Source: a virus
Virus record (IMG/VR): IMGVR_UViG_3300045988_132725
Strand: one strand, 5' to 3'
Length of the DNA: 64,000 bases
Shown here: positions 33,087-47,154 of the stretch, piece by piece
Layout of the letters: each line of letters begins with the position of its first letter
Numbering within the stretch: position 1 is the first letter of the stretch
Notes under the pieces: model-generated
Database searches by the model: none
What the model saw: only the letters and a program-made list of their open reading frames with translations
What the model was told of the DNA's origin: nothing
Made by a program: the position numbers and the translations under genes

Positions 33087-33366
33087 AGAAGAGTACTATC
33101 AAGTTTTAAAGGATCTGGAGGAATTCTATGATCAAAAGAGAACTGAGTTAATGAAAGATTATGCCAGATCCAATTGCCCTTACAGTGTAGGAGATATCTT
33201 GAAGGATCATATGGGAATAATTAGAGTTGAGCGTATTGAATGCTATTTGACAGATCCTCCACAATGTATGTTTTATGGAACTGAGCTAACTATTAAGTTG
33301 GTTCCAAATAAAAAGAACACAAAGAGAGAAATGTATCAGACAAATGTTATAGAGAAAGTAAGATGA
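33079..33366 (+). CDS. hypothetical protein (95 aa)
   Basis: Overlaps the upstream stop. Confidence 0.5.
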   Translation: MTKEEYYQVLKDLEEFYDQKRTELMKDYARSNCPYSVGDILKDHMGIIRVERIECYLTDPPQCMFYGTELTIKLVPNKKNTKREMYQTNVIEKVR

Positions 33367-33376
33367 GAACATTGTT

Positions 33377-34204
33377 ATGGGAACGATGATTGACAAAATG
33401 GAAGATCCCGATTTCTCTCGGATCATTAAAGTTAGAGAGGAAAATGATAAGCAGTTGGTGTCTGCGAGAGAGTTGTATGAATTTATAGATGGCAAGGAAC
33501 GATTCACTAGATGGATCGGACGCATGTTTGAGTATGGTTTTGTGGAACATGTTGATTATGAGGCGGTGAACATTTTCGTACAGTGCCAAAACGGTATTGG
33601 TGGTACCAATAAGATGGATTATGCTCTGACAATTGATTGCGCCAAGCAAATAGCGATGCTTCAAAGAAACGCACAAGGACAACAAGTAAGAGCGTATTTT
33701 ATTAAATGTGAAGAGTTACTAAAGGAGAAGTTGAAGAAACAAGAGCTTGTTCTTCCGAAAGATTATCCTTCGGCGTTAAGAGCCTTGGCCGATGCTGAGG
33801 AAGAGAAAATGAAGGCGCTGGAGATAGCAAAGGAAAATGAGCTGAAGGTGAAGGAGCGTGACAAGTATATCAAGTCTAACCATCACAAGGTCGATTTCTA
33901 TGATGATTGCGTATATGAGGATGATGAGACCACTTACGACATGAATGGAGCGGCAAAGATCGTAATGGCCAAATATAACAAGGGAAGAAACACGATGATG
34001 GATATTCTCAGATTCTACGGGGTATTGATGCAGGACAATCTTCCTTACGAGAAATATATAAGATCCGGCTATTTTACCGTTAAGATCACGAAACCAAAAG
34101 ATAAGTTCGGGAACCCTAAGACTTGTAAGTCTACTATCGTGACAAGTAAAGGTGTTACGTTCCTGAAGAAGACGATAGACAAATACTATAGTGAGTTCTC
34201 GTAA
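33377..34204 (+). CDS. antirepressor (AntA/Rha-like N-terminus plus KilAC-like C-terminus)
   Basis: ARELYEFIDGKERFTRWIGRMFEYGFVEHVDYEAV is AntA-like. The C-terminus is lysine-rich and resembles the other paralogs. Confidence 0.5.
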   Translation: MGTMIDKMEDPDFSRIIKVREENDKQLVSARELYEFIDGKERFTRWIGRMFEYGFVEHVDYEAVNIFVQCQNGIGGTNKMDYALTIDCAKQIAMLQRNAQGQQVRAYFIKCEELLKEKLKKQELVLPKDYPSALRALADAEEEKMKALEIAKENELKVKERDKYIKSNHHKVDFYDDCVYEDDETTYDMNGAAKIVMAKYNKGRNTMMDILRFYGVLMQDNLPYEKYIRSGYFTVKITKPKDKFGNPKTCKSTIVTSKGVTFLKKTIDKYYSEFS

Positions 34205-34211
34205 AAAAATA

Positions 34212-34246
34212 AGCCCCATCTACTTGCTAGCGGATGGGGCTTTCTT
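34212..34246. terminator. bidirectional rho-independent terminator
   Basis: AGCCCCATC (34212-34220) pairs with GATGGGGCT (34233-34241), flanked by an A-run upstream and TTTCTT downstream. Sits between convergent genes. Confidence 0.75.
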
Positions 34247-34334
34247 GTGGATTTATGTGAAGTAAAGTCTAACTATTGCAAATGAGGCTTTTATATTAGT
34301 TCTTGAATGTATAAAAAGAAATGTTCTAGCAGAA

Positions 34335-35453
34335 TCAATCTTTTTCAGGCTTGATATGCTCTGATGGGTCAAGAGATCTTAACTTAAGTAAAAAACTAAA
34401 ATGTTCTTCTAATTCTTTACTTTTTTTTGTGTCTTCTATTTTAAATTTTTCGGTTGATTCTTTAAATTTCTTTATTGATTTTGTGATTTCTCTTCTAAAA
34501 CGAAGTAATGGAACAAATAAAGGGAAAAATAGTCCGCTAAAGATAGCAAAAGATATAGACGATATTAGAGCAAAAGTTTCATTGAAAATAAGTTCTTTGT
34601 CTAATAATACATTATATAAGATGGAAAGTATCGATATTGATAATAAAATCAGTGTAAAATGAATCAAATTGAAGTAATGAGTAAATATACTAGCTCCTTT
34701 CTTTTTAAATTTAAAAATAGCTCCTATAGCCAAGACAATAATGGCTAATACATAAACAATTGTCATAGACCATGATCCTAAAAAAGGTAATAATCCAATA
34801 ACAAAAGTAGATAATATTAAAGAAAAGAGTATTTTAATACAAGTCGTAAGTTTAAATTCATATAATATATCGCCATTGGAAGGATTTCTTTCCTTTATAG
34901 AAATCCAATAATAACTCCATATATATAACCAATATATAAAAGATGTAATAGAAACTAAACTTACTGTATCAATGCACCATTTTATAGCCCCCCAAAAACA
35001 ATCAAATATAAAAATAAATATACAAAATAAAAATGAATAAAAGAAAGAAGACAAAAATTCAGGTGCTTGGGTTATATTTTTGTATAAATTATCAACATTA
35101 TCCCTTAAAGTAAAATAACTTGTTTGATATTCAACAGTTAAGAACTGTAGCTCGTTTACCAAGCTAAGCATTTCTTGTTTACGTGGATTATTTTCTTCTT
35201 TTGATTTAGCAATAGCACTATAGAGAACTTTATAATTACGCTTTTTTAAAACATCTACAAAATTATCCCCTTCTCTGCTTAAAAACGCTTTAGTCCGTTT
35301 GCAAATAATTAACAATAAATTTTGTATAAAATTATTGCTGTTTTTCTCGATGTTGTCAGATCCAAAAAAACATAAAACAGCTAAAGTCATTATTGAACCT
35401 AAAAAAGTTGCACTATTTCCACTAAGAAAAGTGCATAATAGTACTAGAAGCAT
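34335..35453 (-). CDS. polytopic membrane protein (about 7-8 TM, about 110-aa cytoplasmic loop, charged C-tail)
   Basis: Hydrophobic runs FLSSFFYSFLFCIFIFIF, ITSFIYWLYIWSYYWISI, ILFSLILSTFVIGLLPFLG, IVYVLAIIVLAIGAIF, FTLILLSISILSILY and ISSISFAIFSGLFFPLFVPLL. Very AT-rich. Confidence 0.65.
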   Translation of the reverse strand: MLLVLLCTFLSGNSATFLGSIMTLAVLCFFGSDNIEKNSNNFIQNLLLIICKRTKAFLSREGDNFVDVLKKRNYKVLYSAIAKSKEENNPRKQEMLSLVNELQFLTVEYQTSYFTLRDNVDNLYKNITQAPEFLSSFFYSFLFCIFIFIFDCFWGAIKWCIDTVSLVSITSFIYWLYIWSYYWISIKERNPSNGDILYEFKLTTCIKILFSLILSTFVIGLLPFLGSWSMTIVYVLAIIVLAIGAIFKFKKKGASIFTHYFNLIHFTLILLSISILSILYNVLLDKELIFNETFALISSISFAIFSGLFFPLFVPLLRFRREITKSIKKFKESTEKFKIEDTKKSKELEEHFSFLLKLRSLDPSEHIKPEKD

Positions 35454-35456
35454 GTC

Positions 35457-36017
35457 TCAATTAATGATTTTGTGTGATGAAAGTAAAAGGCTTTGAAACT
35501 GTTTCTTTAATGCTTCAGTGTTTTTAGTGTCATTAAAATTTGCGAAAGCAGAATGTTCTTCTGCTCCTAATTCTCTTCTATATTTATTGTCATCACCGAT
35601 TGAAAAATGAAATTCAGGTTTTAGTTCGCTGTCTAGTTTATAAACTAGAACCTGCCCTTCAGCTATTTTATCCTTTATTAAAGGACTAATATTTGTTGCT
35701 AAGTCTTCTATAAAGCTATGTTCTTTTTTTTCTAAAATAATGGAAAGTTTTCCTCCTCTATTTAAAAAATGAGTAATTTGGTCGTATAGTGGCTGCATAG
35801 GGTTATAATCCCCTTCTGTAACTTCTTTATCTACTTTTTCAGCAAAACTAGTTCTGAAGAGAGAACCTTCACCGCAAAGCATATCGATTTCATTGGAGTG
35901 CCTAAAAATCTCTTTCATTATTATAGCATTATGTGATCTGTCAGCATTCCACATTAATTCATTTCTTTTGCTGTTTGCAATAGTCTCTATCTCGACATTA
36001 TACTCTACTAGACTCAT
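35457..36017 (-). CDS. hypothetical soluble 186-aa protein, first gene of the cassette
   Basis: 3-nt gap to the membrane gene. FHFSIGDDNKYRRE...ANFND is only reminiscent of a PLD HxKxxxxD...GSxN layout (Ser replaces Lys). Not a confident family call. Confidence 0.6.
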   Translation of the reverse strand: MSLVEYNVEIETIANSKRNELMWNADRSHNAIIMKEIFRHSNEIDMLCGEGSLFRTSFAEKVDKEVTEGDYNPMQPLYDQITHFLNRGGKLSIILEKKEHSFIEDLATNISPLIKDKIAEGQVLVYKLDSELKPEFHFSIGDDNKYRRELGAEEHSAFANFNDTKNTEALKKQFQSLLLSSHKIIN

Positions 36018-36037
36018 TTTCTCTAAGTTTGGACGTG

Positions 36038-36045
36038 CAAATTTA
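36038..36045 (-). promoter_or_regulatory. -7 promoter box TAAATTTG for the 186-aa/membrane cassette
   Basis: Plus-strand CAAATTTA, 21 nt upstream of the ATG at 36017. Confidence 0.45.
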
Positions 36046-36220
36046 AATAAATAATTTGATATTGCAATCTCTACATTGCATTAAAATCAAAATACATTGG
36101 GAGTTATCTTGGTTTTTTTATGTTCTTGGGCATAATTTGTTTTTGTTAAGAATATGGCTTCGCCTTTACCCCTCCGATAACATCCCTCAGCAACGTAGTT
36201 GAAGCTTAACTATAACTACT

Positions 36221-36266
36221 ACCTTATATGACATATACAGTATATACTACTGTTACTATATAAGGT
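36221..36266. repeat. nested inverted repeat
   Basis: ACCTTATAT (36221-36229) pairs with ATATAAGGT (36258-36266), enclosing ACAGTA-tatac-TACTGT. Confidence 0.6.
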
Positions 36267-36392
36267 AATACCTATTTACAGGATATTACAAGATTGGTTC
36301 GATATGGGTTGATACAAGCTTCTTACCTAAAACTACGGCGATAAGAGGACTTGGTTGACTAATCTAGATATCAATCACCATATCCGAGCATT

Positions 36393-37094
36393 CTACGACA
36401 CTTCCGCCCCTCCACCTATGTAAGCAACTTCGTTCATAAAAGGATAACCGTTCTGTTGGCCAAGTAGTAGGGAACTCTTGTATGCTACTCGTTTTAAACA
36501 GATCGGCGGCGCTTGGTCTCCTTTCCTCCATGGATAAACCAGAATAGGAACAGCGAGATTGCAAACGTCAGAGCCTTGGTTGACCTGTTTCCAATTACTA
36601 GGATACGTCCAGTTACGGATGCGAATCATAGGATTTTTATTTGTCTTCGGTCACTCGTTTACCGGCTCTCGGTTGATGTTATCGGAGTTCGGGTTGTCAG
36701 GCGTAAGACATAGCCCTAGATTATACCACCGATAAACGAGCGTTCGTAAATACTCGATCTTTTTGTTAGATTTTTGTCAATCTGGGAGAAGAGAGGCACG
36801 ACATTGCAGCCTTGTCTTAAAAACTCCCGTAAGGTTTGTTTTATATTCTCCAGCATCCCTCAACGCAGGAGAAGTAGAACGGTTATTTATTCCCGGATAC
36901 TAATTTTTCTGACTCGAATCTACATCAAGTTTCTGTCTGCCAATAGCTGTATCAAAGCTGGGATAAGGAACAAGATCCTCTAACTCATCCCGGAAAGCAT
37001 TAATAAATGCCGATTGAGGATATTTCCGCTATTGTATCGTCACCAAGGTATAACTATCGACCAACCGGTTAGGATTGACCCACATGATAGACAT
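36393..37094 (-). pseudogene. about 233-codon gene interrupted only by four nonsense codons (no frameshift)
   Basis: One minus-strand frame is open from ATG 37092-37094 to TAG 36393-36395, apart from TAG 37029-37031, TAG 36900-36902, TGA 36777-36779 and TGA 36651-36653. A neighbouring frame has about 19 stops over the same span. GC is visibly higher than the flanks. Confidence 0.6.
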
Positions 37095-37125
37095 GGAGCA
37101 ATGGGATAGGGTACAAAGCGTCCAG

Positions 37126-37148
37126 ACCTTCGGATTTGAAGGTTTTAT
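37126..37148 (+). terminator. plus-strand terminator-like hairpin in a region with only minus-strand genes
   Basis: ACCTTC-ggattt-GAAGGT followed by TTTTAT. Confidence 0.3.
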
Positions 37149-37195
37149 ATAAGAATAGGCTGATTTGATCAAAAAGGGTTTGTGGTTGTTTGATA

Positions 37196-37765
37196 TTAAT
37201 TCGTTACGGAAACAATAATACCTACTGCTTCCATATCACTTATAGTTTGCCTAGCTTCATCTAGCGTACTTCCATGATATAAGTGATCTGCAATGATATT
37301 TAATTTAAAAGATATGCCTCTATGTCCATTACTTATAAAGTCAATAAGAGCTTGACCACAAGCAGGACATGGGCTTTTAGATACTCTCATAATTAACGAT
37401 AAAGTTCCGCTGGCATCAGTACCTTCATCGTCAATGGAATGATCTATAAATGATTGAATGCCAGCTATTGCCTCCGTTTCTGCATGGACTCCATCTTCAC
37501 TTATGCCTGTGCCTATTACAACTTCATTGCCATCATCTTCATTTATAAAGGAAACCTGAGCATAAGTAGTATATCCTGTACTTGATGATTCTTCTGTTGT
37601 GATGAGTCTATTGTAAATAAAATCGCCTTGAATACAATCTCCATTGATCCCGGAAATTAAATTATACTGTCGTGTGGCAGACTCCCTATTATCCATTTGG
37701 TATTTGGGATGATTTGTATTGTTTGGAGAAAGTCTGCTTATTGCATTTTCTTGGTATGAATACAT
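37196..37765 (-). CDS. free-standing zinc deaminase (cytidine/nucleic-acid deaminase fold)
   Basis: H-A-E (GVHAETEAIAG) and P-C-x-x-C (SKSPCPACGQ) motifs about 35 residues apart. 189 aa with no other domain. Confidence 0.7.
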   Translation of the reverse strand: MYSYQENAISRLSPNNTNHPKYQMDNRESATRQYNLISGINGDCIQGDFIYNRLITTEESSSTGYTTYAQVSFINEDDGNEVVIGTGISEDGVHAETEAIAGIQSFIDHSIDDEGTDASGTLSLIMRVSKSPCPACGQALIDFISNGHRGISFKLNIIADHLYHGSTLDEARQTISDMEAVGIIVSVTN

Positions 37766-37781
37766 TTGGTTCGTTTTAAAT

Positions 37782-38060
37782 TTATGGATTATTCTTCTCT
37801 CCTCGCCCCTCTTCTCTTCTCACCAGTTTCCCGTCACTTCCAGCCAAGAACTTCTCGCTGATGCCTTGCTTCTCTGATTTAATGGGAATGGTAACTATGT
37901 TGGTTTGTCTTCTGGCGAATATCGGAGCTACTTGGTAAAGAATCTCTATCGCCTCATCCATTGACAGGTAATAATTACCAGCGTATAGACCGAAGAAGTG
38001 ACCTTGATCTCCTCTTGATATCTTGTGGTAATAGTTCCTCTGTAAGGCAATATTTCCCAT
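37782..38060 (-). CDS. hypothetical 92-aa protein, first gene of deaminase operon
   Basis: 16-nt gap to the deaminase ORF. Basic/acidic C-tail. Confidence 0.55.
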   Translation of the reverse strand: MGNIALQRNYYHKISRGDQGHFFGLYAGNYYLSMDEAIEILYQVAPIFARRQTNIVTIPIKSEKQGISEKFLAGSDGKLVRREEGRGEKNNP

Positions 38061-38078
38061 CGAGCGATTAGTTTACCG

Positions 38079-38086
38079 CAAAGTTA
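38079..38086 (-). promoter_or_regulatory. -7 promoter box TAACTTTG for the deaminase operon
   Basis: Plus-strand CAAAGTTA, 18 nt upstream of the ATG at 38060. Confidence 0.45.
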
Positions 38087-38225
38087 ATGAAAGTGTCTTA
38101 GAAAGCAAGGAAATGGGCTATATTTTGATTTTTTCTTCAAAAATATTGATGATTATCAAATATACTTTCGAAAAAATTTGTCATGATGGTTTTAATTCAT
38201 AATTTCGCACGAAAAAATTGTTAAC

Positions 38226-39188
38226 ATGAAGCGATTGTTGTTTTTGCCCTTGTTGGTATTATGTTTATCTGGATGTATGATGGAAGAGTTGGACAAGGAG
38301 TCTCCAGTTCAAGAAGCGAAAGAATATCTCGTGCCTATAAAGATGGCGGGGGAGATATTGGAGATAGAGGAAGGGCCATTGACGAAAGCTGGAGAGAACA
38401 ATGATTTGTATGGGTTTCAGATAAATAGTAAGAAGGCTGGAGAGACATCTTATTCTCCTTATGCCTATGGTTTGTTTGATGATATAAGTGACGTGAAGGT
38501 TAAGTTGATTAGTGGTGCTGAGTATGAGTTTGTTTGTACTATGGTGAGGGATGGGAAGAGTAAGATTTGGGGAATTAATCATGCCGGCCAAGGCACACCT
38601 TTTAAAATGAACTTAAATAACTATAATGAATTTATATATGATACAAAAGACTCTTATGAGAATGATTTTAAAAGGGGACTCACTGAGGTTGGTATGGAGT
38701 TATATTATGTTATTCCCAATACAGATCGTTACTATGGAACCATAGATAAAATTGATCCATTATCTGCTTCTTCTTTATCAATAAATATGAAAAGAGTTGT
38801 CTTTGGGTTGAAATGTATTGCTGATGGGCTTACGGAAGGGGAGCTTAAAATACGTGTAATGAAATATACATCTGACGATTCTCCTTATTTATCTATTAAG
38901 ACTCGTGGCGATCAATCCGTTGAAGAAATATATACTTTTGATTCTTTTTACTTGGACGATAACGGAGACCTATCTCGTGCATACACTTTAGAAGTTACCC
39001 ATATACACGTAGATAATACACAAGAGATAATAGTAAATGAGTATATGACTTTTAAACGCAATAAGAAAACCATTGTTACAATTAAGATCAAGAAGAGTAA
39101 TGGTGATACGGGTACTAAAGGAGTAGATGTTGTGTTAGACGATACCCCAATGACTGATGGAGATAAAGTGGTAATAGACGGCAAGTAA
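38226..39188 (+). CDS. lipoprotein (320 aa)
   Basis: Signal peptide plus lipobox MKRLLFLPLLVLCLSGC. Confidence 0.7.
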   Translation: MKRLLFLPLLVLCLSGCMMEELDKESPVQEAKEYLVPIKMAGEILEIEEGPLTKAGENNDLYGFQINSKKAGETSYSPYAYGLFDDISDVKVKLISGAEYEFVCTMVRDGKSKIWGINHAGQGTPFKMNLNNYNEFIYDTKDSYENDFKRGLTEVGMELYYVIPNTDRYYGTIDKIDPLSASSLSINMKRVVFGLKCIADGLTEGELKIRVMKYTSDDSPYLSIKTRGDQSVEEIYTFDSFYLDDNGDLSRAYTLEVTHIHVDNTQEIIVNEYMTFKRNKKTIVTIKIKKSNGDTGTKGVDVVLDDTPMTDGDKVVIDGK

Positions 39189-39213
39189 TAAACCAAACAT
39201 AGCTTTAAAATAG

Positions 39214-39248
39214 GGCGAACATCGTTAAATCTGGTGTTCGCCTTTTTT
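39214..39248 (+). terminator. rho-independent terminator after lipoprotein gene
   Basis: GGCGAACA (39214-39221) pairs with TGTTCGCC (39235-39242), followed by TTTTTTG. Confidence 0.75.
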
Positions 39249-39703
39249 GTATTAAATGGCTAGAATAAGGAGCAAATTGGCACTGGGATAGAGAATTTAG
39301 GGAAAACGGGGCTTGAGGATTTGGTTCCCGGAAAATTTTTGGAAACAGATATATGCATTTTTATATATAGGAAAGAAGATTGTTGGGATGGATGGCAGAT
39401 GGTTAAGAGGCAGTTGGTTAAGGGTGGAAATACTGGATGGGAAAATGAGAGAATTTACATATAGGCAAAGGTGTGCTTCCAGTGTATAAAAACTGTTTTT
39501 GATTTCTGGAAGGACAACCTAGGTTAGGGGAGGTGTTTGGAAGGGTAAAAACGGGACTTGAAAATAGGGACCGGCAACATGTATGGTATCCGCAACGCAA
39601 AGGTAACCCTCCCTCTTCTTTTTTGCCTTTTTCGTCCTGTTTGATCATTAATTAATGATTTATTTATGAATATAATATCTGATTATCAGTATGTTATGTA
39701 AAT

Positions 39704-39734
39704 AAGTTCACTAATATAGAAAGTGAACTTTTTG
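39704..39734 (+). terminator. terminator-like hairpin
   Basis: AAGTTCACT (39704-39712) pairs with AGTGAACTT (39722-39730), followed by TTTG. Confidence 0.45.
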
Positions 39735-39777
39735 ATAAAGGTGTATTAGTTGACTAGTACACTAGTAAGGTGTATAA

Positions 39778-39826
39778 TGTCATGTTTGTATAAAATATGA
39801 CATTATGTCATGTTATTTTGTCATGT
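39778..39826. repeat. TGTCATGT iterons (three direct, one inverted)
   Basis: TGTCATGTT at 39778 and 39806, TGTCATGT at 39819, and ATGACAT at 39797. Confidence 0.6.
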
Positions 39827-39912
39827 GATGATTCGCTTTAGTAAGTTGCTTACTAAAAGTAACTATTGTCTTATTTGCATTAGTTCTTTTGCCTATATAA
39901 TGTACGTGTATA

Positions 39913-40260
39913 TTATTCTTTATTGTCCTGTATCGCTTTCCTAATAGCTTCAGCGAATTTAGGATGTAAATGTATTTCGTTTTCCTCTATGATAACTAAA
40001 TTATCACTTAAACTAGTATGCTTTGTATTATCTGTCTGATTATCAATATTATCAGGGGTAAACACTTGTTCGCCTAATAGTTCATTAAATGTGCTTTTTG
40101 TATATTCTCTTAAACTACATAACTGTTTGATTGATAGTGTATTTATGTCTCTATCTAGTATGGTGGATATTGTACTTTTATTAATCCCTAATACATTTGA
40201 TAAATCTATATTAGTAATATCGTACTTAAATCGTATGTCTCGTATAGTGTTCATATCCAA
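39913..40260 (-). CDS. HTH (XRE/Cro-like) DNA-binding protein, 115 aa
   Basis: ITNIDLSNVLGINKSTISTILDRDINTLSIKQLCSL is a helix-turn-helix. Confidence 0.6.
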   Translation of the reverse strand: MDMNTIRDIRFKYDITNIDLSNVLGINKSTISTILDRDINTLSIKQLCSLREYTKSTFNELLGEQVFTPDNIDNQTDNTKHTSLSDNLVIIEENEIHLHPKFAEAIRKAIQDNKE

Positions 40261-40340
40261 TATTTTACGTATTAATATGTAGTGTATAAACGTTAAATAC
40301 GTGTTAATGAATGTATTTTCCGTTTTTAATCTAAAAAGCC

Positions 40341-40388
40341 GTTACATCTTTGCACTGTGATCAAGAAACAACGGTTACTTAGATCACA
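40341..40388 (+). repeat. conserved promoter-like box plus hairpin element, copy 1
   Basis: gttacATCtttgcActgtgatcaagaaaCaa...agatcaca, with TGTGATC (40356-40362) pairing GATCACA (40382-40388). Confidence 0.55.
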
Positions 40389-40421
40389 AAGTTCTTTGTC
40401 TTATTGATAACAGCGTAAAGT

Positions 40422-40613
40422 TTAGTCTTTTAATTCAGTACCTATTAATTCTTTGTACGGTATGTTAGTGAGTTCATGAATTAACATAACCTCTTTGATA
40501 CTGCGATCTAGCAAATTATCATATTTGCGTAAATTAGACGTATCACATTTGAGTTTATAAGCAATGTCTAATTGCTTAATATTATGTTTTTTAAGTAGCT
40601 CTCTAAAAGTCAT
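40422..40613 (-). CDS. small HTH DNA-binding protein, 63 aa
   Basis: MTFRELLKKHNIKQLDIAYKLKCDTSNLRKYDN. The track ORF extends to 40712 through a hydrophobic, low-complexity extension; the internal ATG 40611-40613 is preferred. Confidence 0.5.
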   Translation of the reverse strand: MTFRELLKKHNIKQLDIAYKLKCDTSNLRKYDNLLDRSIKEVMLIHELTNIPYKELIGTELKD

Positions 40614-40659
40614 ACAAAAACCAATTAATATTATTAAACAACTAATTAACATTCTTTTT

Positions 40660-40693
40660 ACATGTAAAATTGCACATGTGAAAAATAACATGT
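40660..40693. promoter_or_regulatory. three ACATGT palindromes at exact 14-bp spacing (candidate operators)
   Basis: ACATGT at 40660-40665, 40674-40679 and 40688-40693, 47-80 nt upstream of the small HTH gene. They abut repeat copy 2. Confidence 0.55.
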
Positions 40694-40746
40694 TACTTTG
40701 CGCTGTGATCAAGAAATAAAGATCACACCCTAACAGCTGTTAGGGT
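40692..40746 (+). repeat. promoter-like box plus hairpin element, copy 2, followed by a perfect 20-bp palindrome
   Basis: gttactttgcGctgtgatcaagaaaTaaagatcaca (TGTGATC 40704-40710 pairs GATCACA 40721-40727), then ACCCTAACAGCTGTTAGGGT (40727-40746). Confidence 0.55.
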
Positions 40747-41586
40747 TGACAAATATACTGAAATATTGATTATAAACAAAAGGTATGTAATGAGTTTTAG
40801 CGTATTGTTTTACCTGTTATCCGAAAAACTAACATAACATTGCATATTTAACAGGTTTTTGTAAGATTAATAAGTAGGTATTTGAGAAGTTGAAAGCAAG
40901 AAATAAAGGTTTAACCTTTACGATATTGCAGTGAAGTTGTGATGTATTGAGAATTAAAACAACGGTTAGACCGTTCCTAGTGTGATAGGCTAGGATAATG
41001 ATCTTTGACGTATTGAGTGCTAAAAGTACAAATAGATAGCACATAGTTCAGCTGTATTATTGAAATATATCTTTTATATTGGTTTCCGATATTGTAAGAT
41101 ATGTGTATAATATATAGCCTTATGAAAAACCTTGTAAGATAGCATTTATTTATACGCTATGAATGTTTTGTAAAACGGTAACTAAATGTAATGAACTTGA
41201 AAAGGAATATTCCGGGATAGATTTGTCGGAATGTCTGGGTGAAACCAGTTTGTACGGGTAAGGTACGCTTTAATCAATCGGTTTGGTTTTAGAACGGCTT
41301 TACTTACAATTCGGGAATGATAGGCTGTAGTCTCGTATATATATGAGGTGAATCATATCTATATCTCTATTCATTCCCAGTATTACACAACTATTGTAAC
41401 TACGAAATAATTGTGTCTTTTCGGATGGACTACCGACACGAAATACTAGAATCGTAACTTTAGTATTTGGGTGTGTCTTCCAGTGACTTTAAACTTACAA
41501 CGGCGCAAAGATACTGAAAGAATTTGTTCGATACAAATGTAGTTCGCAAATTTTTATAAACAATTTAATTATAGGAGGATTATATT

Positions 41587-42231
41587 ATGACTACAAATGA
41601 GACTATCAATCAGAATGTGGATTTTACAGTAGAACAAGTAAGAAATATTCTTTACGGCTGTATGGATAATTGCCAACGTATTTTCAAGAAATACGATTTG
41701 GAAGATTACGCTAATTGGGGAATCGCACAAAAGAAGGAATATTTTGGCGGTAAGGTAGTGATATTTACGTCTACCAGAGCTTATGTGATCCAAGACATTT
41801 CAGTGGACACTAGCGAAGATCTTGCCAACGGTATCTGGAAGGCATGGAAATCTATGTTCATACTTTCCGCATCATTAGCGAAAGTGAAGCAAAATATTAA
41901 GGAAATGGGGGGATCTATGCCTTCTTTAATGCCAGTGAAGGGTGTTGTTTCTATGTATAACGCTGAAGGAATCAATATCTTTTCCAGTGATCTTTATGGT
42001 GATTGCGCCGACAATATCAGATTTACCCCGAAATCAAAGGATATAAAAGAGGCTGGCAAACCTAAAGAGGTGCGTGATTGTGGATTCCGTCAAGCCAAGG
42101 CTATGTTTACGTTACTTGGCGCTGATAAATTGATTCGTCAATATAGATACGAGAAAGAAGAACCGAAAACTGTAATTCCCGCACTTCCGGAGACCGTGAT
42201 CGAAGAAGCGGAAGCTATCGTTCTAAATTGA
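41587..42231 (+). CDS. hypothetical 214-aa protein with strong AGGAGG ribosome-binding site
   Basis: AGGAGG at 41573-41578, 8 nt before the ATG. The gene has its own terminator. Confidence 0.6.
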   Translation: MTTNETINQNVDFTVEQVRNILYGCMDNCQRIFKKYDLEDYANWGIAQKKEYFGGKVVIFTSTRAYVIQDISVDTSEDLANGIWKAWKSMFILSASLAKVKQNIKEMGGSMPSLMPVKGVVSMYNAEGINIFSSDLYGDCADNIRFTPKSKDIKEAGKPKEVRDCGFRQAKAMFTLLGADKLIRQYRYEKEEPKTVIPALPETVIEEAEAIVLN

Positions 42232-42319
42232 TATAATTGTAGACGTACCTTGAGAAATATGTAAGGGTGTAATGTATCCGTGTGGATAATTACGCCCTTA
42301 TTATATCTATCTTGTAAAA

Positions 42320-42346
42320 GCATCCGCAATTATGTGGGTGCTTTTG
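42320..42346 (+). terminator. rho-independent terminator
   Basis: GCATCCGCA-atta-TGTGGGTGC with two G-U pairs (valid on the plus strand only), followed by TTTTG. Confidence 0.65.
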
Positions 42347-42380
42347 TGTATATTATGTATATTTGCGAAAAATAAAGAAT

Positions 42381-42698
42381 ATGGCAACGATAGTATTGGA
42401 GAAAAAACGAAAGAACATAGATTTACCAGTGGAAACATTGAAAAAGTTGTCTATCATGGCAGCATCACAGGGTAAAAGTTTAAAAGCGTTTATAGAAAAT
42501 ATTTTGATAGCAAAAGCCGATACTCTGGACGTGCAAGTTTCATTGAATCCCAGTCCAAGTAACGACCCGTGGTTTGACAACCCGAAAAACGTGGCTGCTG
42601 TAACACGAGGTATTGAGGATTTAAAACAGAAAAAAGTTGTATCTATGAATCTCGGTGAATCTTTGGATGATTTTCTTAATCGTGTAGAGCATGTATAA
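42381..42698 (+). CDS. antitoxin partner of YoeB-like toxin (105 aa)
   Basis: ATG 42381 (the track uses TTG 42363). Overlaps the toxin ATG by 8 nt. TATATTTG -7 box at 42358-42365. Confidence 0.6.
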   Translation: MATIVLEKKRKNIDLPVETLKKLSIMAASQGKSLKAFIENILIAKADTLDVQVSLNPSPSNDPWFDNPKNVAAVTRGIEDLKQKKVVSMNLGESLDDFLNRVEHV

Positions 42699-42963
42699 AA
42701 TAGAATTTACTAAAGAAGCTATTAAAGATGCTTCAAGATTACGGAAGTCGGATATGCAATCTTATAAGAAGCTTGATAAGTTAATAAATGAACTGAAAGA
42801 ACACCCTACCACAGGCACGGGGCAAGTGGAGCAATTGAAAGGGAGTCTTTCGGGATATTGGAGCAGACGAATAAACAATCAACACCGAATAATCTATTCC
42901 ATACATGAAGAAATTGTAACGGTGGAGGTTGTATCGGTTGGAGGTCATTACGGAGATAAATAA
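42691..42963 (+). CDS. yoeB: type II toxin, YoeB/Txe (RelE-superfamily) mRNA interferase
   Basis: KGSLSGYWSRRINNQHRIIYSIHEEIVTVEVVSVGGHY matches the YoeB signature (LSGYWSRRI...HR..Y...GHY). Confidence 0.8.
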   Translation: MYKIEFTKEAIKDASRLRKSDMQSYKKLDKLINELKEHPTTGTGQVEQLKGSLSGYWSRRINNQHRIIYSIHEEIVTVEVVSVGGHYGDK

Positions 42964-42982
42964 TATACAAACATAAAAATAA

Positions 42983-43012
42983 AGCACTCACAAATTTCGT
43001 GGGTGCTTTTTT
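42983..43012 (+). terminator. rho-independent terminator after the TA pair
   Basis: AGCACTCAC-aaatttc-GTGGGTGCT followed by TTTTT. The 3' arm GTGGGTGCTTTT is shared with the terminator at 42320. Confidence 0.7.
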
Positions 43013-43070
43013 CATAGGCGCTTGCATGGTGCATGAATAACTTTAAGGGAGAAAATTAAATCATAGATTT

Positions 43071-43304
43071 ATGGAAGAAAGAATAATAAACAGACTATGC
43101 GTTATTATATTCGCGAACGCAGCATTTACATTGATCGGATGTTATGTAGTGTATCTCTTTTTGAAAGATATTGAAAATACCCTACATGAAAAGATACAAG
43201 ATTTATCCGATACTTTAAAACAAATGCAATGGGAGAAAGATCTGAAAGAAGCAACAGAAATGCTTTTCGGAAAAAGCAAAAATGATACCATAATACATAT
43301 TTAG
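43071..43304 (+). CDS. small single-pass membrane protein (77 aa)
   Basis: LCVIIFANAAFTLIGCYVVYLFL is a TM helix. Confidence 0.45.
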   Translation: MEERIINRLCVIIFANAAFTLIGCYVVYLFLKDIENTLHEKIQDLSDTLKQMQWEKDLKEATEMLFGKSKNDTIIHI

Positions 43305-43336
43305 TATTAGACTGTGTATTATATCTACATGAATAA

Positions 43337-43912
43337 TTACAGGGTTGGAAGTTCAAGTATAAAATGAATAATAATAGATGAATTTGGAATGTTTTCTAAA
43401 TCTTGAATGTACTGAATTTTCTCATCTTTACTAATTTTAAAATCTTCAACATTTCTGTTTTTTTTGAGAAAATTCAAAATTTGATTGGAATATATTTCAC
43501 ACAATTGATCTTTTTTTGCGATTTTTGCATGTTTTATGGCTTGTACAAAACAGTTAAGGGTATCGGAATATTGCATAATTAAAGCTTTATATTGTCCCAT
43601 TACATACATTGACATACTATATGTTGCGTGAAAAGATTTATCGTCAAGTTCCATTATTTTAATAGCTAATTGATCCTGTAAAGTTTTAATGCGCTCATTA
43701 ATTCTTTTGTCTATTGTCATTGCGGAGTATATTTGACCACCAAGTGCTATTGCGGAAGCTATTCCAATAATCCCGATCGCACCGGTCCAGATCCACGTTA
43801 ACAACTGATCTGTAAAGATAAAAGGTTCACATCTGATAAAGGACGAACACAATGAAATTGCGGATATTGCTATAGCTATGATTGATAGCCAATTAGCTTT
43901 AAGATACTTCAT
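43337..43912 (-). CDS. two-TM N-terminus plus about 110-aa cytoplasmic domain protein (191 aa)
   Basis: ATG 43910-43912 (MKYLKANWLSIIAIAISAISL...). The track start 43987 is a TTG. TATTTTTG -7 box appears as CAAAAATA at 43931-43938. AT-rich. Confidence 0.55.
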   Translation of the reverse strand: MKYLKANWLSIIAIAISAISLCSSFIRCEPFIFTDQLLTWIWTGAIGIIGIASAIALGGQIYSAMTIDKRINERIKTLQDQLAIKIMELDDKSFHATYSMSMYVMGQYKALIMQYSDTLNCFVQAIKHAKIAKKDQLCEIYSNQILNFLKKNRNVEDFKISKDEKIQYIQDLENIPNSSIIIHFILELPTL

Positions 43913-44000
43913 ATACTTTATTTTTAACTGCAAAAATAATGAATTGGGGTGACTTCGGGAAATCGGTACGCTCATATTATACCTCAAAATTCACAAAATC

Positions 44001-44177
44001 ATGAAAAGAAAGAACAAGAAGCAAAAATTCCAGACGGTAAGAATCCGTCTGGATAAGAGAATGTTGACAGAGAAAGACGTTATAAGGATCATTCAACGTG
44101 AACTTATTGATCCAAAAGATGAAATCGATCGGATAGTGGCTGAGTCTGTGCGTCAATTTGAGCTTGAATATCCATAA
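44001..44177 (+). CDS. unlisted 58-aa basic protein (possible ribbon-helix-helix)
   Basis: MKRKNKKQKFQTVRIRLDKRMLTEKDVIRIIQRELIDPKDEIDRIVAESVRQFELEYP. Below the 60-aa track cutoff. Confidence 0.45.
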   Translation: MKRKNKKQKFQTVRIRLDKRMLTEKDVIRIIQRELIDPKDEIDRIVAESVRQFELEYP

Positions 44178-44224
44178 GTGCTTTTGATTTGGAACGTATG
44201 AAGCAAGAATCTGTACGCCTATAT

Positions 44225-44255
44225 TTTGTATAGTCGTAAACATTTTATATATTTG
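44225..44255 (+). promoter_or_regulatory. consensus Bacteroidota promoter TTTG-N19-TATATTTG
   Basis: TTTG at 44225-44228 and TAtaTTTG at 44248-44255, 14 nt upstream of the DUF4160 coding start. Confidence 0.6.
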
Positions 44256-44269
44256 AAAACAAAAAAGAT

Positions 44270-44527
44270 ATACCAATAATAAGCGAGTTTTTCGGAATAA
44301 TTGTAACTTTGCGTTTCTTGGATCACAATCCACCGCATTTTCATGCTAGATATGGATCGCAGAAAGTTTTGGTTGAAATTGAAAACGGGATTATTCGTGG
44401 CGAAATGTCTGAGCGGGCTTTACGGTTGATCTTGGAATGGCTTGATTTACATCGTGAGGAACTGAAAATCGCATGGGAAAAAGCGGCAAGTGGCAATGAT
44501 CCGGGAAAAATTGAACCATTAAAATAG
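44270..44527 (+). CDS. DUF4160-family protein, conserved N-terminus begins at an ATA codon
   Basis: (I)PIISEFFGIIVTLRFLDHNPPHFHARYGSQKV matches the family pattern MP.I..F.GI.I....DH.PPHFHA.Y. No ATG in the open frame (44240 onward). The track uses TTG 44309, which truncates the conserved N-terminus. Confidence 0.6.
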   Translation: MPIISEFFGIIVTLRFLDHNPPHFHARYGSQKVLVEIENGIIRGEMSERALRLILEWLDLHREELKIAWEKAASGNDPGKIEPLK

Positions 44528-44534
44528 TAATGTT

Positions 44535-44777
44535 ATGTTTACGGAAGTTGTACAAGCTAATTACGTGGATGGATACCGTATAGCGGTGTTGTTCAATGAC
44601 GGGGTCAAGAAAATCGTGGATTTCACGAACCTGTTAAAAAGGAATATGCCGGTATTTAAGCCTCTGGAGAACATAGACCTGTTTAAGAAATTCACAGTAA
44701 CAGATACTTTAGAGTGGGATAACGGAAACATTGATATAGCTCCAGAGTATTTGTATGAGAATGGGGTTAAGGTATAA
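44535..44777 (+). CDS. DUF2442-family protein
   Basis: VVQANYVDGYRIAVLFNDGVKKIVDF...LEWDNGNIDIAPEYLYE is the typical DUF2442 pattern. Partner of DUF4160. Confidence 0.7.
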   Translation: MFTEVVQANYVDGYRIAVLFNDGVKKIVDFTNLLKRNMPVFKPLENIDLFKKFTVTDTLEWDNGNIDIAPEYLYENGVKV

Positions 44778-44783
44778 GTAAAT

Positions 44784-44894
44784 ATGGGATTAATAGTGAC
44801 ATTCGGTTTTGTTAGCGTAGTCTCTTTATGTGTGATTACGTGGGGAATATTTGAGATCCATAAAATGAACAAGAAAAAAGAGCGATATTCGTAA
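44784..44894 (+). CDS. possible 36-aa membrane peptide
   Basis: MGLIVTFGFVSVVSLCVITWGIFEIHKMNKKKERYS. Short, so weak. Confidence 0.25.
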   Translation: MGLIVTFGFVSVVSLCVITWGIFEIHKMNKKKERYS

Positions 44895-44907
44895 AATTAC
44901 ATTGTAT

Positions 44908-45081
44908 ATGAAAACTGGAGACAAAGCAAAGGTTAGTCCTGTGCTTACGGGATTGTCCGAATGGATAGAAGGCGTGATTATTAAAATTCGCAACAACCCG
45001 TTTACAGGGCTGGAAATTGCCGTAAAAGATGCTTGTGGGCGTGTCTTTTTCGGTGAGTCTAAATATTTTCAACCCGTATAA
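44908..45081 (+). CDS. unlisted 57-aa protein coupled to vapD (candidate antitoxin/VapX-position partner)
   Basis: MKTGDKAKVSPVLTGLSEWIEGVIIKIRNNPFTGLEIAVKDACGRVFFGESKYFQPV. The stop lies 2 nt before the vapD ATG. Confidence 0.5.
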   Translation: MKTGDKAKVSPVLTGLSEWIEGVIIKIRNNPFTGLEIAVKDACGRVFFGESKYFQPV

Positions 45082-45083
45082 TC

Positions 45084-45362
45084 ATGTTTGCGATAGCTTT
45101 TGATATGGTCATTTCAGACCTTAAACAAAATTACGGGGATCCGTATAATAATGCTTATTTTGATATTAGTAACATAATGGAGAAGTATGGATTTTATAGG
45201 GCACAAGGGAGCTTGTATCTAACAGAGAATAGAGACATGGCAAACCTGTTCCGTGCTATTGAGGCTTTGAAGAAAACGGAGTGGTTCAGAAAATCAGTAC
45301 GTGACATAAGAACATTTAGGGTAGAGGATTGGTCAAACTTCACGGATTTTATGAAAGAATAA
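45084..45362 (+). CDS. vapD: VapD-family (Cas2-like fold) endoribonuclease
   Basis: MFAIAFDMVISDLKQNYG...YGFYRAQGSLYLTENRDMANLFRAIEALKKTEWFRKSVRDIRTFRVEDWSNFTDF matches the VapD pattern residue for residue in the conserved blocks. Confidence 0.8.
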   Translation: MFAIAFDMVISDLKQNYGDPYNNAYFDISNIMEKYGFYRAQGSLYLTENRDMANLFRAIEALKKTEWFRKSVRDIRTFRVEDWSNFTDFMKE

Positions 45363-45455
45363 TATTTTGCAATATATTGTAGTCAAATCAAAGCATGAAG
45401 GCGTTTGCGAGAGATCGTAGGCGCTTTTTTTTATGCCTAAAAATCAAGGAATAAT

Positions 45456-45689
45456 ATGAAAACAAATCTTACATCTGGTTTAATTGTCGCTATGGTAGAG
45501 CTTGCGAAATCTAACAACTATTGTGGTTGTATGCAATATTCGCTAACTCATGATTTATGTTTCTCGTGCGGTTTTAGTGCTAGTAATGTAAAGTTACTTA
45601 GTGCCCTTGTATCCGTATGTCTCGCTTCAAAGGTAAGTTTTGAGGTGAGTTATTCGGGACTTGGAGCCGTGAATTTTAGATGCGAATAA
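45456..45689 (+). CDS. hypothetical Cys-rich 77-aa protein
   Basis: Isolated ORF after the vapD T-run. Confidence 0.4.
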   Translation: MKTNLTSGLIVAMVELAKSNNYCGCMQYSLTHDLCFSCGFSASNVKLLSALVSVCLASKVSFEVSYSGLGAVNFRCE

Positions 45690-45698
45690 TAAAATAAC

Positions 45699-45868
45699 TC
45701 CCCTTACCGGTCTATGATTCCGGTTGAAAATCGTTGAAGATTATAAGGGGACACTTCAGAGAAAGCCGAGAGGATTGCGCACATCCTACCAATATTAAGT
45801 ATAGCGATCCCAGAGTACGTCAGGGGCGTTTGAACGTGACTTAACTGTTACGGCTCGGGATTGCTATA
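45699..45868 (+). ncRNA. candidate structured RNA (two long helices, AGGATTGCG repeats)
   Basis: TCCCCTTA (45699-45706) pairs with TAAGGGGA (45744-45751), enclosing ACCGG/CCGGT. A 15-bp helix forms between 45800-45815 and 45854-45868 with a G-U pair valid only on the plus strand. Confidence 0.4.
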
Positions 45869-45934
45869 TCCTTTCTTCTAGGATTGCGGAGTTGATATTG
45901 AGAGTAATAAATTAAAATAAAAGGAGAAAATAAT

Positions 45935-46159
45935 ATGAAGACGATACTATTAATGATTATGGGGCTTATTTGCTTTTGTGCGGTAAGTAGTTGGGAGTAT
46001 TCTACCACTTTGGAGGAGAGAATGAATACTATTCCGGATTCGGTTTATGAGTATATAATATTGAAATTGGGAGACGATGCTACAAATTCTCAAATTCTCT
46101 CATACTATGATAACCATAGAATTGAATGCGATCAAATAGAACTAGAGAATATGAATTAG
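45935..46159 (+). CDS. secreted/membrane-anchored small protein (74 aa)
   Basis: N-terminal signal-like MKTILLMIMGLICFCAVSS. AAGGAG lies 8 nt upstream. Confidence 0.5.
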   Translation: MKTILLMIMGLICFCAVSSWEYSTTLEERMNTIPDSVYEYIILKLGDDATNSQILSYYDNHRIECDQIELENMN

Positions 46160-46174
46160 ATAAAAAAGAAAACA

Positions 46175-46849
46175 ATGAAAAGAGAAGAAAATGCACTGAT
46201 TTATGCTGATTGTAAATATAAGATTGGCGAGTTTGTATACGTTTTTGAGATGTTTGAGATCAAGAGAAGAAAGATATTGTCTATAACCTTTGGAGATAGC
46301 GCCCAGACATTAAAGAGAACCAGATTCGAGGAAGATCGGCATATTAAAAACGAGAAAGAGGTTTCTTATGTGTTAACTACATATGAGACATATCATGAGA
46401 GTGAGTTATTTAAGACAAGGTTGGAGCTAGAGAATGGGCTGTTAAAATCTTTATTGCCTCAGCTTTGCGCAAGCTCTATCTTGGAAATGATTAATGGCAA
46501 TCAGGTTGTAAGAGAGACCATTATTAATCTTGCCATGTCCGAGAATATGAATATAATTAAGGCGAAAATCAAGAAAGAGGAAAAACCTAAGATCCTAAAA
46601 GAGATATACGCTGAGGAATTACCGAAAATTAGGGAAGAAATAGAACAAAAAGAACGCCCTAAGATTGTCGAGCGAATTATACAGGAGGAAACGGCTATCA
46701 TGGCTGATAAAATTACAAAGGAAATTAAAACTGAATCTTACAATAATGGTTGGGAGAATGGTTATGCGGAGGCTATCAAGAAAGTCAAGAATGATATTCC
46801 CAGTCAAATAAATGACTTAGTGGCGAACGTATTTGGATTAGTATCATAA
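46175..46849 (+). CDS. hypothetical protein (224 aa)
   Basis: Packed co-oriented ORF. Confidence 0.55.
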   Translation: MKREENALIYADCKYKIGEFVYVFEMFEIKRRKILSITFGDSAQTLKRTRFEEDRHIKNEKEVSYVLTTYETYHESELFKTRLELENGLLKSLLPQLCASSILEMINGNQVVRETIINLAMSENMNIIKAKIKKEEKPKILKEIYAEELPKIREEIEQKERPKIVERIIQEETAIMADKITKEIKTESYNNGWENGYAEAIKKVKNDIPSQINDLVANVFGLVS

Positions 46850-46860
46850 AAATTATAGTC

Positions 46861-47115
46861 ATGTCAGATAACAAGTTAGACGTAACGGTCATCCAGAAAC
46901 CCGATCAATCATATATGGTCGCAATCACTTATATACATCTGGATCGCAACAAGGATAAAGAGAAGAGACAAATGGTAAGCGAGACAACCTATCGTTGGAA
47001 CTCTCGATCAAAAGAGGTTATAGATTTCCTCAAGTTTAAGCGCACGAAAGTATTTTATTCCCAAGTTCGTGCCATGTGCAAGCATTACGGGCAAAGGGAA
47101 TTTAGGAGGTATTAA
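46861..47115 (+). CDS. hypothetical protein (84 aa)
   Basis: Packed co-oriented ORF. Confidence 0.5.
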   Translation: MSDNKLDVTVIQKPDQSYMVAITYIHLDRNKDKEKRQMVSETTYRWNSRSKEVIDFLKFKRTKVFYSQVRAMCKHYGQREFRRY

Positions 47116-47154
47116 AGTAACGTGTCATAGATAATAATTAAATTGTTTATTGTG

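Follow-up and report, generated by a model that had tools for sequence, protein, structure and literature searches.

The window analysed here is a 64,000-nucleotide (nt) stretch of viral DNA (IMG/VR record IMGVR_UViG_3300045988_132725), and the subject of the analysis is an 11.7-kb island at positions 34212-45934 whose genes lie on both strands around a cI-like repressor. The window is part of an approximately 80-kb temperate phage that is integrated in Parabacteroides distasonis, judging from protein identity, chromosomal location, host genes at the right and tail genes beyond the left end. Proteins of the island, the deaminase included, have annotated counterparts of 100% identity in P. distasonis, and the locus is found within NCBI chromosomes of 5.2-5.4 Mb and in contigs of 0.2 to more than 1 Mb. 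Host genes (ABM, LptF/G, TGT) start about 3-5 kb past the right end of the window and the tail genes extend more than 10 kb past its left end; the prophage measures roughly 80 kb and the matching IMG/VR genomes 68.9 and 80.6 kb. Among GenBank phages there is essentially no counterpart, the only match being one of 443 bp in a 6.2-kb unannotated fragment. In public gut metagenomes the phage is very common, its proteins occurring in 2000-3000 blocks of the collection searched.

All open reading frames (ORFs) of at least 100 amino acids (aa) in 23515-34204 and in 45935-63660 lie on the plus strand, as the first-pass annotation of the window had described, and the gene calls on near-identical contigs agree. 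Between these blocks the gene strands run, in order, - - (-) - - + - - + + + + - + + + + + +. The features of the island and of its left edge are the following.

33377-34204, plus strand: AntA/KilAC antirepressor (Pfam AntA, E value 5e-22; ANT, E 3.5e-15), itself a variable cassette.
34335-35453, minus strand: 372-aa multi-transmembrane protein with about 6-7 transmembrane segments by hydropathy and a charged C-terminal tail, of low G+C content (GC 0.26).
35457-36017, minus strand: 186-aa soluble protein predicted to have a phospholipase D (PLD) fold, with a TAAATTTG promoter box at 36045-36038.
36150-37182, no strand assigned: ORF-free segment, GC 0.43, kept in every relative between two swapped slots.
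37196-37765, minus strand: 189-aa zinc deaminase with HAE and PCPAC motifs, of an AID/APOBEC-like orphan family.
37782-38060, minus strand: 92-aa ORF, GC 0.43, with a TAACTTTG box at 38086-38079.
38226-39188, plus strand: 320-aa lipoprotein with the lipobox LSGC, followed by a strong terminator at 39212-39244; allelic or absent in relatives.
39913-40260, minus strand: 115-aa cI-like helix-turn-helix (HTH) repressor (phrog_8, E 3e-6; phrog_3, E 2.5e-4), kept in all relatives.
40373-40696, minus strand: 323-bp cassette with a 63-aa putative HTH ORF at 40422-40613.
41587-42231, plus strand: 214-aa protein kept in all relatives, the first rightward gene past a 973-bp gap, with a terminator at 42313-42348.
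42381-42698, plus strand: 105-aa ribbon-helix-helix (RHH)-like antitoxin, overlapping the toxin gene by 8 nt.
42691-42963, plus strand: 90-aa YoeB/RelE-family toxin (YoeB_toxin, E 2.7e-19 and 69.4 bits against a cutoff of 27; ParE_toxin, 36.8 bits).
From 43071, plus strand: 77-aa protein with one transmembrane segment, travelling with the toxin-antitoxin (TA) pair.
43337-43912, minus strand: 191-aa protein with two predicted transmembrane segments, travelling with the TA pair.
44001-44177, plus strand: 58-aa basic protein, travelling with the TA pair.
44309-44777, plus strand: DUF4160 remnant followed by DUF2442 (Pfam E 2.5e-17 and 3.4e-15).
44908-45362, plus strand: 57-aa ORF and, 2 nt apart, a 92-aa Cas2/VapD-fold protein, with a terminator at 45397-45428.

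Eleven related loci were obtained by way of flanking and internal proteins and were aligned to the window by blastn. The DNA shared between the window and these relatives is 85-99.9% identical, yet the cargo they carry is different in at least seven slots, which upholds the variable hotspot that had been proposed from the window alone; far from carrying the same genes in the same order, the relatives differ by whole cassettes. The location is fixed by conserved anchors that are 85-99.9% identical in L001, L003, L005/L017, L007 and L012-L015, and which comprise a 95-aa ORF, the spacer at 36150-37182, an ORF of about 100 aa, the cI-like repressor, the 214-aa gene, DUF2442 and genes for 77-, 74- and 224-aa proteins. 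Both long non-coding gaps around the repressor and the small ORFs at 45456-46159 are likewise common to all relatives. The slots are as follows.

33397-34171: the AntA gene, absent in L003 and L012-L014.
33397-36150: AntA with the 372- and 186-aa genes, replaced in L017 (the 80.6-kb genome) by a 2.4-kb minus-strand operon for proteins of 410, 105 and 165 aa, which have no family matches.
37183-37844: the deaminase, replaced in L001/L004, L003 and L005/L017 by a 1.77-kb segment that encodes a 540-aa protein on the opposite strand.
38132-39243: the lipoprotein, of which the middle (38568-39120) is replaced or the whole gene absent.
40373-40696: the cassette of the 63-aa putative HTH ORF, found in the window lineage only.
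42263-44208: antitoxin, YoeB, the 77-aa transmembrane protein, the 191-aa two-transmembrane protein and the 58-aa protein, as one 1.95-kb indel block that is missing from L001, L003, L004, L007 and L012-L015 and present in L005/L017.
44779-45351: the 57-aa ORF and the VapD-like gene, as a 570-bp indel block.
47182-47195: empty in the window; relatives carry a gene for a 152-287-aa pentapeptide-repeat/DUF5758 protein.

Beyond deletions, two slots hold true replacements, namely the 540-aa gene and the 410/105/165-aa operon. The bounds 34212-45934, which come from the first-pass annotation, proved too narrow, as the AntA gene is itself an indel and relatives carry an additional gene at 47182/47195; the variable zone spans about 33397-47195 and surrounds the cI-like repressor. 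The statement that the island interrupts an operon was likewise too simple, as the plus-strand block on the left is a mosaic in its own right, with breaks at 32203, 32400 or 32785 in other contigs. An inserted mobile element was considered and rejected, as neither direct nor inverted repeats flank the island, it contains no integrase or transposase, and a CRISPR array is likewise absent; the island is a recombination-plastic part of the phage and not an inserted element. The 63-aa cassette is the only one in the island to have a flanking repeat, a 24-nt direct repeat at 40348 and 40696. L015 (4107-5541; complete genome CP132899.1) is a prophage remnant with host efflux and thymidine-kinase genes immediately to its left. 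It was rejected as evidence that the deaminase slot is an attachment site, as a truncated integrase (316 aa) is joined there to the last 171 codons of the 540-aa gene and the junction is that of a deletion remnant.

The base composition swings as had been noticed earlier, from a gene GC of 0.262 in the 372-aa gene to 0.43 in the decayed ORF and the 92-aa ORF. The swing lies inside the island and not between island and flanks, the mean GC being 0.343 in the former and 0.377 and 0.357 in the latter. The largest gaps measure 724 bp (39189-39912) and 973 bp (40614-41586), close to the 0.65-0.87 kb first reported. It had further been claimed that a promoter box and a terminator of its own accompany nearly every unit; this holds for some well-placed signals at gene ends and fails for the overall counts. 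Boxes of the Bacteroidetes -7 type (TAnnTTTG) stand 16-20 nt ahead of the 186-aa, 92-aa and antitoxin genes, and four long-stem terminators lie just past gene ends (39212-39244, 42313-42348, 45397-45428 and 44053-44029). The island holds 28 of the 80 TAnnTTTG copies in the window, that is 35% of the matches in 18% of the sequence, at about twice the density of the remainder. TAnnTTTG is not enriched window-wide (80 found against 69 +/- 8 expected), nor are terminator-like sites overall (9 found against 6.2 +/- 3.2). The island units look like autonomous transcription units because of the promoter boxes and terminators at gene ends and because the 186/372-aa pair is found as a pair elsewhere.

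It is proposed, with a probability of roughly 70%, that the interval is a plastic accessory ('moron') zone around the immunity repressor, whose units are exchanged by recombination among close phages and are expressed in the prophage to the benefit of the lysogen or of the prophage itself. The conserved anchors would separate at least seven slots in which self-contained transcription units are gained, lost and exchanged between closely related phages. The cargo would consist of the PLD-fold/multi-transmembrane module, the orphan deaminase, the lipoprotein, the YoeB TA pair with its small membrane proteins, the DUF4160/DUF2442 remnant and the VapD/Cas2-like pair. By analogy with temperate phages in general, these units would be expressed from the prophage and benefit lysogen or prophage: the lipoprotein and membrane proteins might act in superinfection exclusion, YoeB, the VapD-like protein and the PLD/transmembrane module in addiction or abortive infection, and the deaminase might deaminate cytosines of incoming single-stranded nucleic acid. 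The moron regions of lambdoid phages and mycobacteriophages also adjoin the repressor.

The layout resembles the hotspots of prophage-encoded immune systems in P2-like phages and P4-like satellites (Rousset et al., bioRxiv 10.1101/2021.01.21.427644). Both have a fixed position between conserved phage genes and near-identical relatives with different self-contained cargo, and in both the cargo is AT-rich, has its own signals and includes TA-like and membrane proteins. The present locus differs in having many small slots instead of one or two, in its Bacteroidales host and in its several decayed units; its cargo matches no validated defence system. Variable prophage hotspots are a productive source of new immune systems, and to our knowledge almost nothing of the kind has been characterised for Bacteroidales, the dominant gut phylum. 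The locus provides a compact, well-bounded set of candidates with two concrete orphan units, the deaminase and the PLD-fold/multi-transmembrane pair, and any phenotype would be ecologically relevant because the phage is so common in gut metagenomes.

Several points weigh against the proposal. All relatives belong to one narrow phage lineage, represented by three IMG/VR genomes together with metagenome and genome contigs, and none was found in a one-genome-per-species set or among GenBank phages; some of the apparent swaps may therefore go back to a small number of old deletions that were passed on by descent. The counts of sigma-70-type promoters and terminators are not above the shuffled expectation. 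No unit matches a validated defence system in PADLOC, PHROGs or NCBIfam scans, and the defence label given by the first-pass annotation was not borne out: these three resources and Pfam recognise no known system besides the Cas2/VapD-like protein and the YoeB toxin, and PADLOC reports on the island proteins only the former and weak noise on an HTH protein. A defence role of the cargo is thus plausible, though inferred. Finally, as several units are decayed or split (the stop-ridden ORF, DUF4160 and the deaminase gene), part of the cargo may be neutral or dying, and the turnover of units includes loss.

Since the island holds the cI-like repressor of the phage, some of the strand mixing belongs to an ordinary region of lysogeny control and not to foreign cargo. 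The 115-aa protein matches PHROG repressor families and, weakly, the Pfam families Phage_CI_repr and HTH_37. Of the two HTH regulators first named in the island it is the one that stands, the 63-aa candidate having no family match. A cluster of TGTCATGT / ATGACA motifs lies at 39774-39830, just past the 3' end of the repressor gene, with three direct copies and one inverted copy that include a 14-nt inverted repeat spaced by 5 nt; the best sigma-70-like match in the island (39750-39778) overlaps this cluster, which may be an operator set. It could be argued from here that the whole interval is mainly a lysogeny-control module in which the mixed strands reflect regulation and not acquired defence or competition cargo, as the repressor is flanked by the two longest conserved non-coding gaps, the AntA/KilAC gene stands at the left edge and the motif repeats and palindromes lie beside the repressor gene. 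This is rather unlikely, as regulation accounts for at most about 3 kb, and the TA pairs, deaminase, PLD/transmembrane pair, lipoprotein and membrane proteins are non-regulators and are exactly the parts that vary.

The ORF-free segment at 36150-37182 had been called a pseudogene, and a minus-strand frame of about 265 codons (36395-37195), broken by two TAG and two TGA stops, indeed fits a decayed gene. Indels separate the segment from L001. No match that would identify the gene was found in Pfam, by tblastn against phages and plasmids or in a scan of the genome collection. Stop-codon recoding across 36018-37195 was rejected, as the in-frame stops mix TAG and TGA and relatives carry indels. 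A structured RNA was also rejected for the ORF-free region and the long gaps, there being no Rfam match at gathering threshold or at E<=1; sliding-window folding gave a single local hairpin signal at 36110-36350 (z -2.4 to -3.3) and none across the rest. The segment is 3.2% diverged from L012 against 11-18% at synonymous sites of its neighbours, which could reflect recent recombination or constraint at the nucleotide level.

The decayed segment leads to a further explanation, that the interval is a graveyard of selfish and decaying genes in which TA pairs persist by addiction and the remainder are neutral hitch-hikers of no benefit. DUF4160 has lost its start codon, the deaminase gene is split by deletions of 1 and 4 nt, the 92-aa ORF has a pN/pS ratio (of non-synonymous to synonymous polymorphism) of about 1.2, and relatives differ mostly by presence or absence. 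Against it, pN/pS values relative to L012 of 0.24 for the 372-aa gene, 0.26 for the 186-aa gene and 0.40 for the deaminase point to purifying selection on three cargo genes, moderate in the last case; the catalytic residues of the deaminase are invariant in a homologue of 42% identity, more than 2000 collection blocks contain the identical deaminase protein, and two slots hold true replacements. On balance a mere graveyard is decidedly unlikely. That the cargo serves the phage in lytic growth, by counter-defence or host take-over, is very improbable: the island does lie between early-gene blocks, the adjacent slot of relatives carries pentapeptide-repeat proteins, a fold known for DNA mimicry, and host nucleic acids or lipids are conceivable targets of a polynucleotide deaminase or PLD-fold enzyme, but about half of the units run opposite to the early operons and come with separate promoter boxes and terminators, the scans matched none of the known anti-defence families, and TA pairs and lipoproteins are typical of lysogen-expressed morons.

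Within the accessory zone proposed above, the 186-aa protein and its downstream partner, the 372-aa protein, form the small-protein and multi-transmembrane cassette that had been recognised at the outset. The 186-aa protein has, with confidence, a PLD-superfamily fold according to its AlphaFold2 model, which was built from an alignment of ten sequences and has a mean predicted local distance difference test (pLDDT) value of 91.8. Foldseek matches the model to TrmBL2, vaccinia F13, Nuc, Zucchini and NucT (E 6e-8 to 1e-4) and to FAM83; for Nuc (1byr) the E value is 3.7e-6 and the TM-score 0.68 on the target, and viral PLD proteins match too. The fold is thus shared with the PLD enzymes Nuc, NucT and Zucchini, and with non-catalytic PLD-like domains, namely the C-terminal domain of TrmB/TrmBL2 and DUF1669 of FAM83. 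Unlike the HKD enzymes, the protein has no direct Pfam match and lacks the catalytic HxK(x)4D motif, in place of which F-H137-F-S139-I-G-D142 is invariant, with serine for lysine in ten of ten family members; because this motif reads H-F-S-I-G-D, catalysis is uncertain. The 372-aa protein has no match in any family library scanned.

The 186-aa protein is related by profile to DUF7931. In hhalign its family profile (A5) matches a DUF7931/PLDc_2 protein of L009 with a probability of 96.8% (E 2.8e-10), which itself matches DUF7931 at E 2.2e-5 and 24.6 bits, below the 27-bit cutoff. The L009 gene also precedes one for a multi-transmembrane protein; a BLASTP likeness between the two transmembrane partners was sought and not found. 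Homologues of the pair in Phocaeicola vulgatus (49% and 40% identity) lie between type VI secretion system (T6SS) genes and an AAA_15/21 ATPase-DUF6661 pair with an integrase, and others (72% and 50% identity) make up a chromosomal islet of two genes amid housekeeping genes, both contexts being in other Bacteroidales, so that the two genes demonstrably move as a pair between unrelated contexts. Among the island units this pair is the strongest candidate for an undescribed two-gene system, be it in defence, in T6SS-related antagonism or immunity or in another role, and it adds a mobile PLD-fold and membrane pair that is also found beside T6SS loci. Next to the Phocaeicola copy (L020-L023, 9832-11422), an AAA_15/AAA_21 ATPase is followed by a 186-aa DUF6661 protein and then the integrase; the ATPase and DUF6661 genes near the T6SS locus are possibly another two-gene defence-like module.

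The island deaminase is a 189-aa protein whose motifs H94-A-E96 and P132-C133-P-A-C136 are invariant in P0006, the homologue of 42% identity. Pfam matches nine AID/APOBEC families and no other, with APOBEC3, SNAD4, NAD1 and APOBEC_N at E 1e-6 to 4e-6, just above threshold, and P0006 independently ranks NAD1, SNAD4, APOBEC2 and APOBEC_N first. In a sequence search of the PDB, APOBEC3H is best (E 0.015 with the single sequence, 0.001 with the family profile), against E 1.4 for T4 dCMP deaminase, and the alignment with APOBEC3H spans SPCPxC...L.DFI...L.I.A..LY. The top 50 Foldseek matches are all AID/APOBEC, but the model is poor (mean pLDDT 43) and the fold evidence is weak alone for this reason. 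A word-indexed search over 5.8 billion proteins returned near-identical copies only, and an exhaustive phmmer search over 1.84 billion representatives added one true relative, P0006; two further candidates, P0008 and P0009, were rejected as repeat-protein artefacts.

Bacterial AID/APOBEC-like domains have been described, for example in Wolbachia phage WO (B3gp45) and in Pseudomonas brassicacearum (PSEBR_m1207), and in these bacterial and phage-borne cases the domain is the toxin part of a large polymorphic toxin (Iyer et al. 2011, PMC3239186). The features of the clade are the topology of the helix-4 division with an extended loop from strand 4 to helix 4, two extra C-terminal helices with a D-aromatic motif, and a tryptophan before CxxC (Iyer et al. 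2011). The island deaminase is alike in its HxE and PCxxC zinc motifs, in its best Pfam, PDB-sequence and Foldseek matches and, as with B3gp45, in being phage-borne. Unlike the bacterial versions it is small and stand-alone, or fused to a domain of about 100 aa, and is not the C-terminal domain of an RHS/SpvB toxin; no recognisable immunity gene adjoins it, which also sets it apart from polymorphic toxins. In the low-confidence model a helix at 168-180 lies between strands at 151-159 and 183-188, with an 8-residue loop DHLYHGST, and residue 189, the last of the protein, directly follows strand 5, so that the two extra C-terminal helices appear absent. The sequence VSKSPCPAC has lysine in place of the tryptophan. 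As these helices and this tryptophan are missing, the protein is called AID/APOBEC-like only; all scores are marginal, the Pfam ones lying barely above threshold, and membership of the clade is unsettled.

The first-pass annotation had described a deaminase operon, which is instead the frameshift-split version of a single ORF of other relatives: in L012-L014, including complete genome CP143949.1, the 92-aa ORF and the deaminase form one ORF of 295-311 aa, and in the window the two are separated by deletions of 1 nt and 4 nt within a purine-rich linker. The 92-aa ORF persists alone, as 103 aa, in relatives that lack the deaminase. It was rejected as a polymorphic-toxin N-terminal domain joined to many different toxins, as its family comprises only five clusters, all from this phage lineage. 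The island deaminase was also rejected as the dCMP deaminase of the phage, which is encoded elsewhere by a canonical dCMP/CMP-type gene (61454-62068, 204 aa, dCMP_cyt_deam_1, E 1e-26). The two proteins share no similarity, and because the phage encodes this unrelated canonical enzyme the island protein is unlikely, on sequence grounds, to act in nucleotide metabolism. The canonical gene overlaps an RNA ligase gene (224 aa), the two spanning 61454-62714 downstream of tRNAs Glu (58187) and Met (59009).

P0006 (in L009, region 6178-9367) is encoded in an AT-rich accessory stretch of a different phage, convergent with an operon of SRAP (abasic-site shielding), UmuC and UmuD and 1.5 kb from the DUF7931/PLD-like and multi-transmembrane pair and an HNH ORF, which lie just upstream; being a single instance, this context is suggestive only. 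It may be speculated that the island deaminase is a prophage-expressed polynucleotide cytosine deaminase that would restrict incoming single-stranded DNA (ssDNA) in the style of APOBEC3, which restricts retroviruses, and that the PLD/transmembrane pair is a second, undescribed abortive-infection module. This combination is put forward as a long shot. The targets may be phage replication intermediates, ssDNA phages or conjugating plasmids, and the SRAP-UmuC-UmuD and DUF7931/transmembrane neighbours of P0006 would fit a mechanism based on uracil or abasic sites. If true, it would be a phage-borne bacterial counterpart of vertebrate APOBEC immunity. The tiny orphan family, confined to Bacteroidales phages, is of interest for the bacterial origin of the AID/APOBEC clade and could be a source of compact enzymes for base editing.

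The other content calls made from the window, YoeB, DUF4160, DUF2442, the Cas2/VapD-like protein, the lipoprotein and the two-transmembrane protein, were confirmed, as was the AID/APOBEC-like deaminase, by profile scans and transmembrane prediction. The toxin gene recalls the YoeB-YefM system in scoring above the Pfam threshold and in overlapping a small upstream gene. It differs in its partner, which is RHH-like, with only weak matches to ParD, FitA-RHH, HicB and BrnA, and does not belong to the YefM/Phd family in family scans. DUF4160 and DUF2442 presumably form a TA pair, and their gene order here is that of known modules, but the start codon of DUF4160 has changed from ATG to ATA, which leaves only a 72-aa ORF starting with TTG that gene callers skip on contigs identical to the window. 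DUF2442 (44535-44777) is intact, with DUF4160 ending 7 nt ahead of it. The Cas2/VapD-like protein matches Pfam CRISPR_Cas2 (E 8.9e-6, 26.2 bits against a cutoff of 23.8), PADLOC Cas2 (E 2.8e-14) and NCBIfam VapD (E 2.4e-10, 40.7 bits, below the 100-bit cutoff). It resembles VapD of VapXD modules in having a small ORF 2 nt upstream and differs in scoring below that cutoff. There is no repeat array in 33000-48000 and no other cas gene among the island ORFs scanned, and thus no sign of a CRISPR-Cas locus.

The remainder of the window is laid out as follows.

267-23184, minus strand: structural block with tape-measure and tail genes.
21823-23184, minus strand: Mu-type portal, within the structural block.
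23515 onward, plus strand: left early block with KilA-N/ANT antirepressors, DNA methylase, NAD-ligase and two integrase-like ORFs.
From 45935, plus strand: right block with Lin1244_N, MutS_I, SPFH, two tRNAs, dCMP deaminase and RNA ligase.

The plus-strand block at the left contains three antirepressor-type paralogues (25751-27758 and 33377-34204) with the domains ANT, KilA-N plus ANT and AntA plus ANT. Two tandem ORFs of about 200 aa each (31895-33086) match the catalytic domain of tyrosine recombinases only (E 9e-26 and 1e-9), and in the second, by eye, K and S seem to replace the catalytic R and H. Homology to other contigs breaks inside this pair, at 32203 beside a Toprim gene in L012-L014 and at 32400 beside host-like genes in L008. 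In L007 (14798-17899) the AntA gene adjoins an intein-bearing large terminase (Terminase_3 plus Hint/Intein_splicing, 1033 aa) that replaces the ligase/methylase/integrase-like block and with which the window shares no nucleotide similarity. The tail-gene block has an AT-rich patch at 7049-8954 (GC 0.30) encoding a 'GT4-conflict' glycosyltransferase (E 2e-66), whose gene a 5-nt deletion divides into parts of 493 and 151 aa where the near-identical contig L030 has a 618-aa gene; the patch has the appearance of a second moron site, this one within the structural module.

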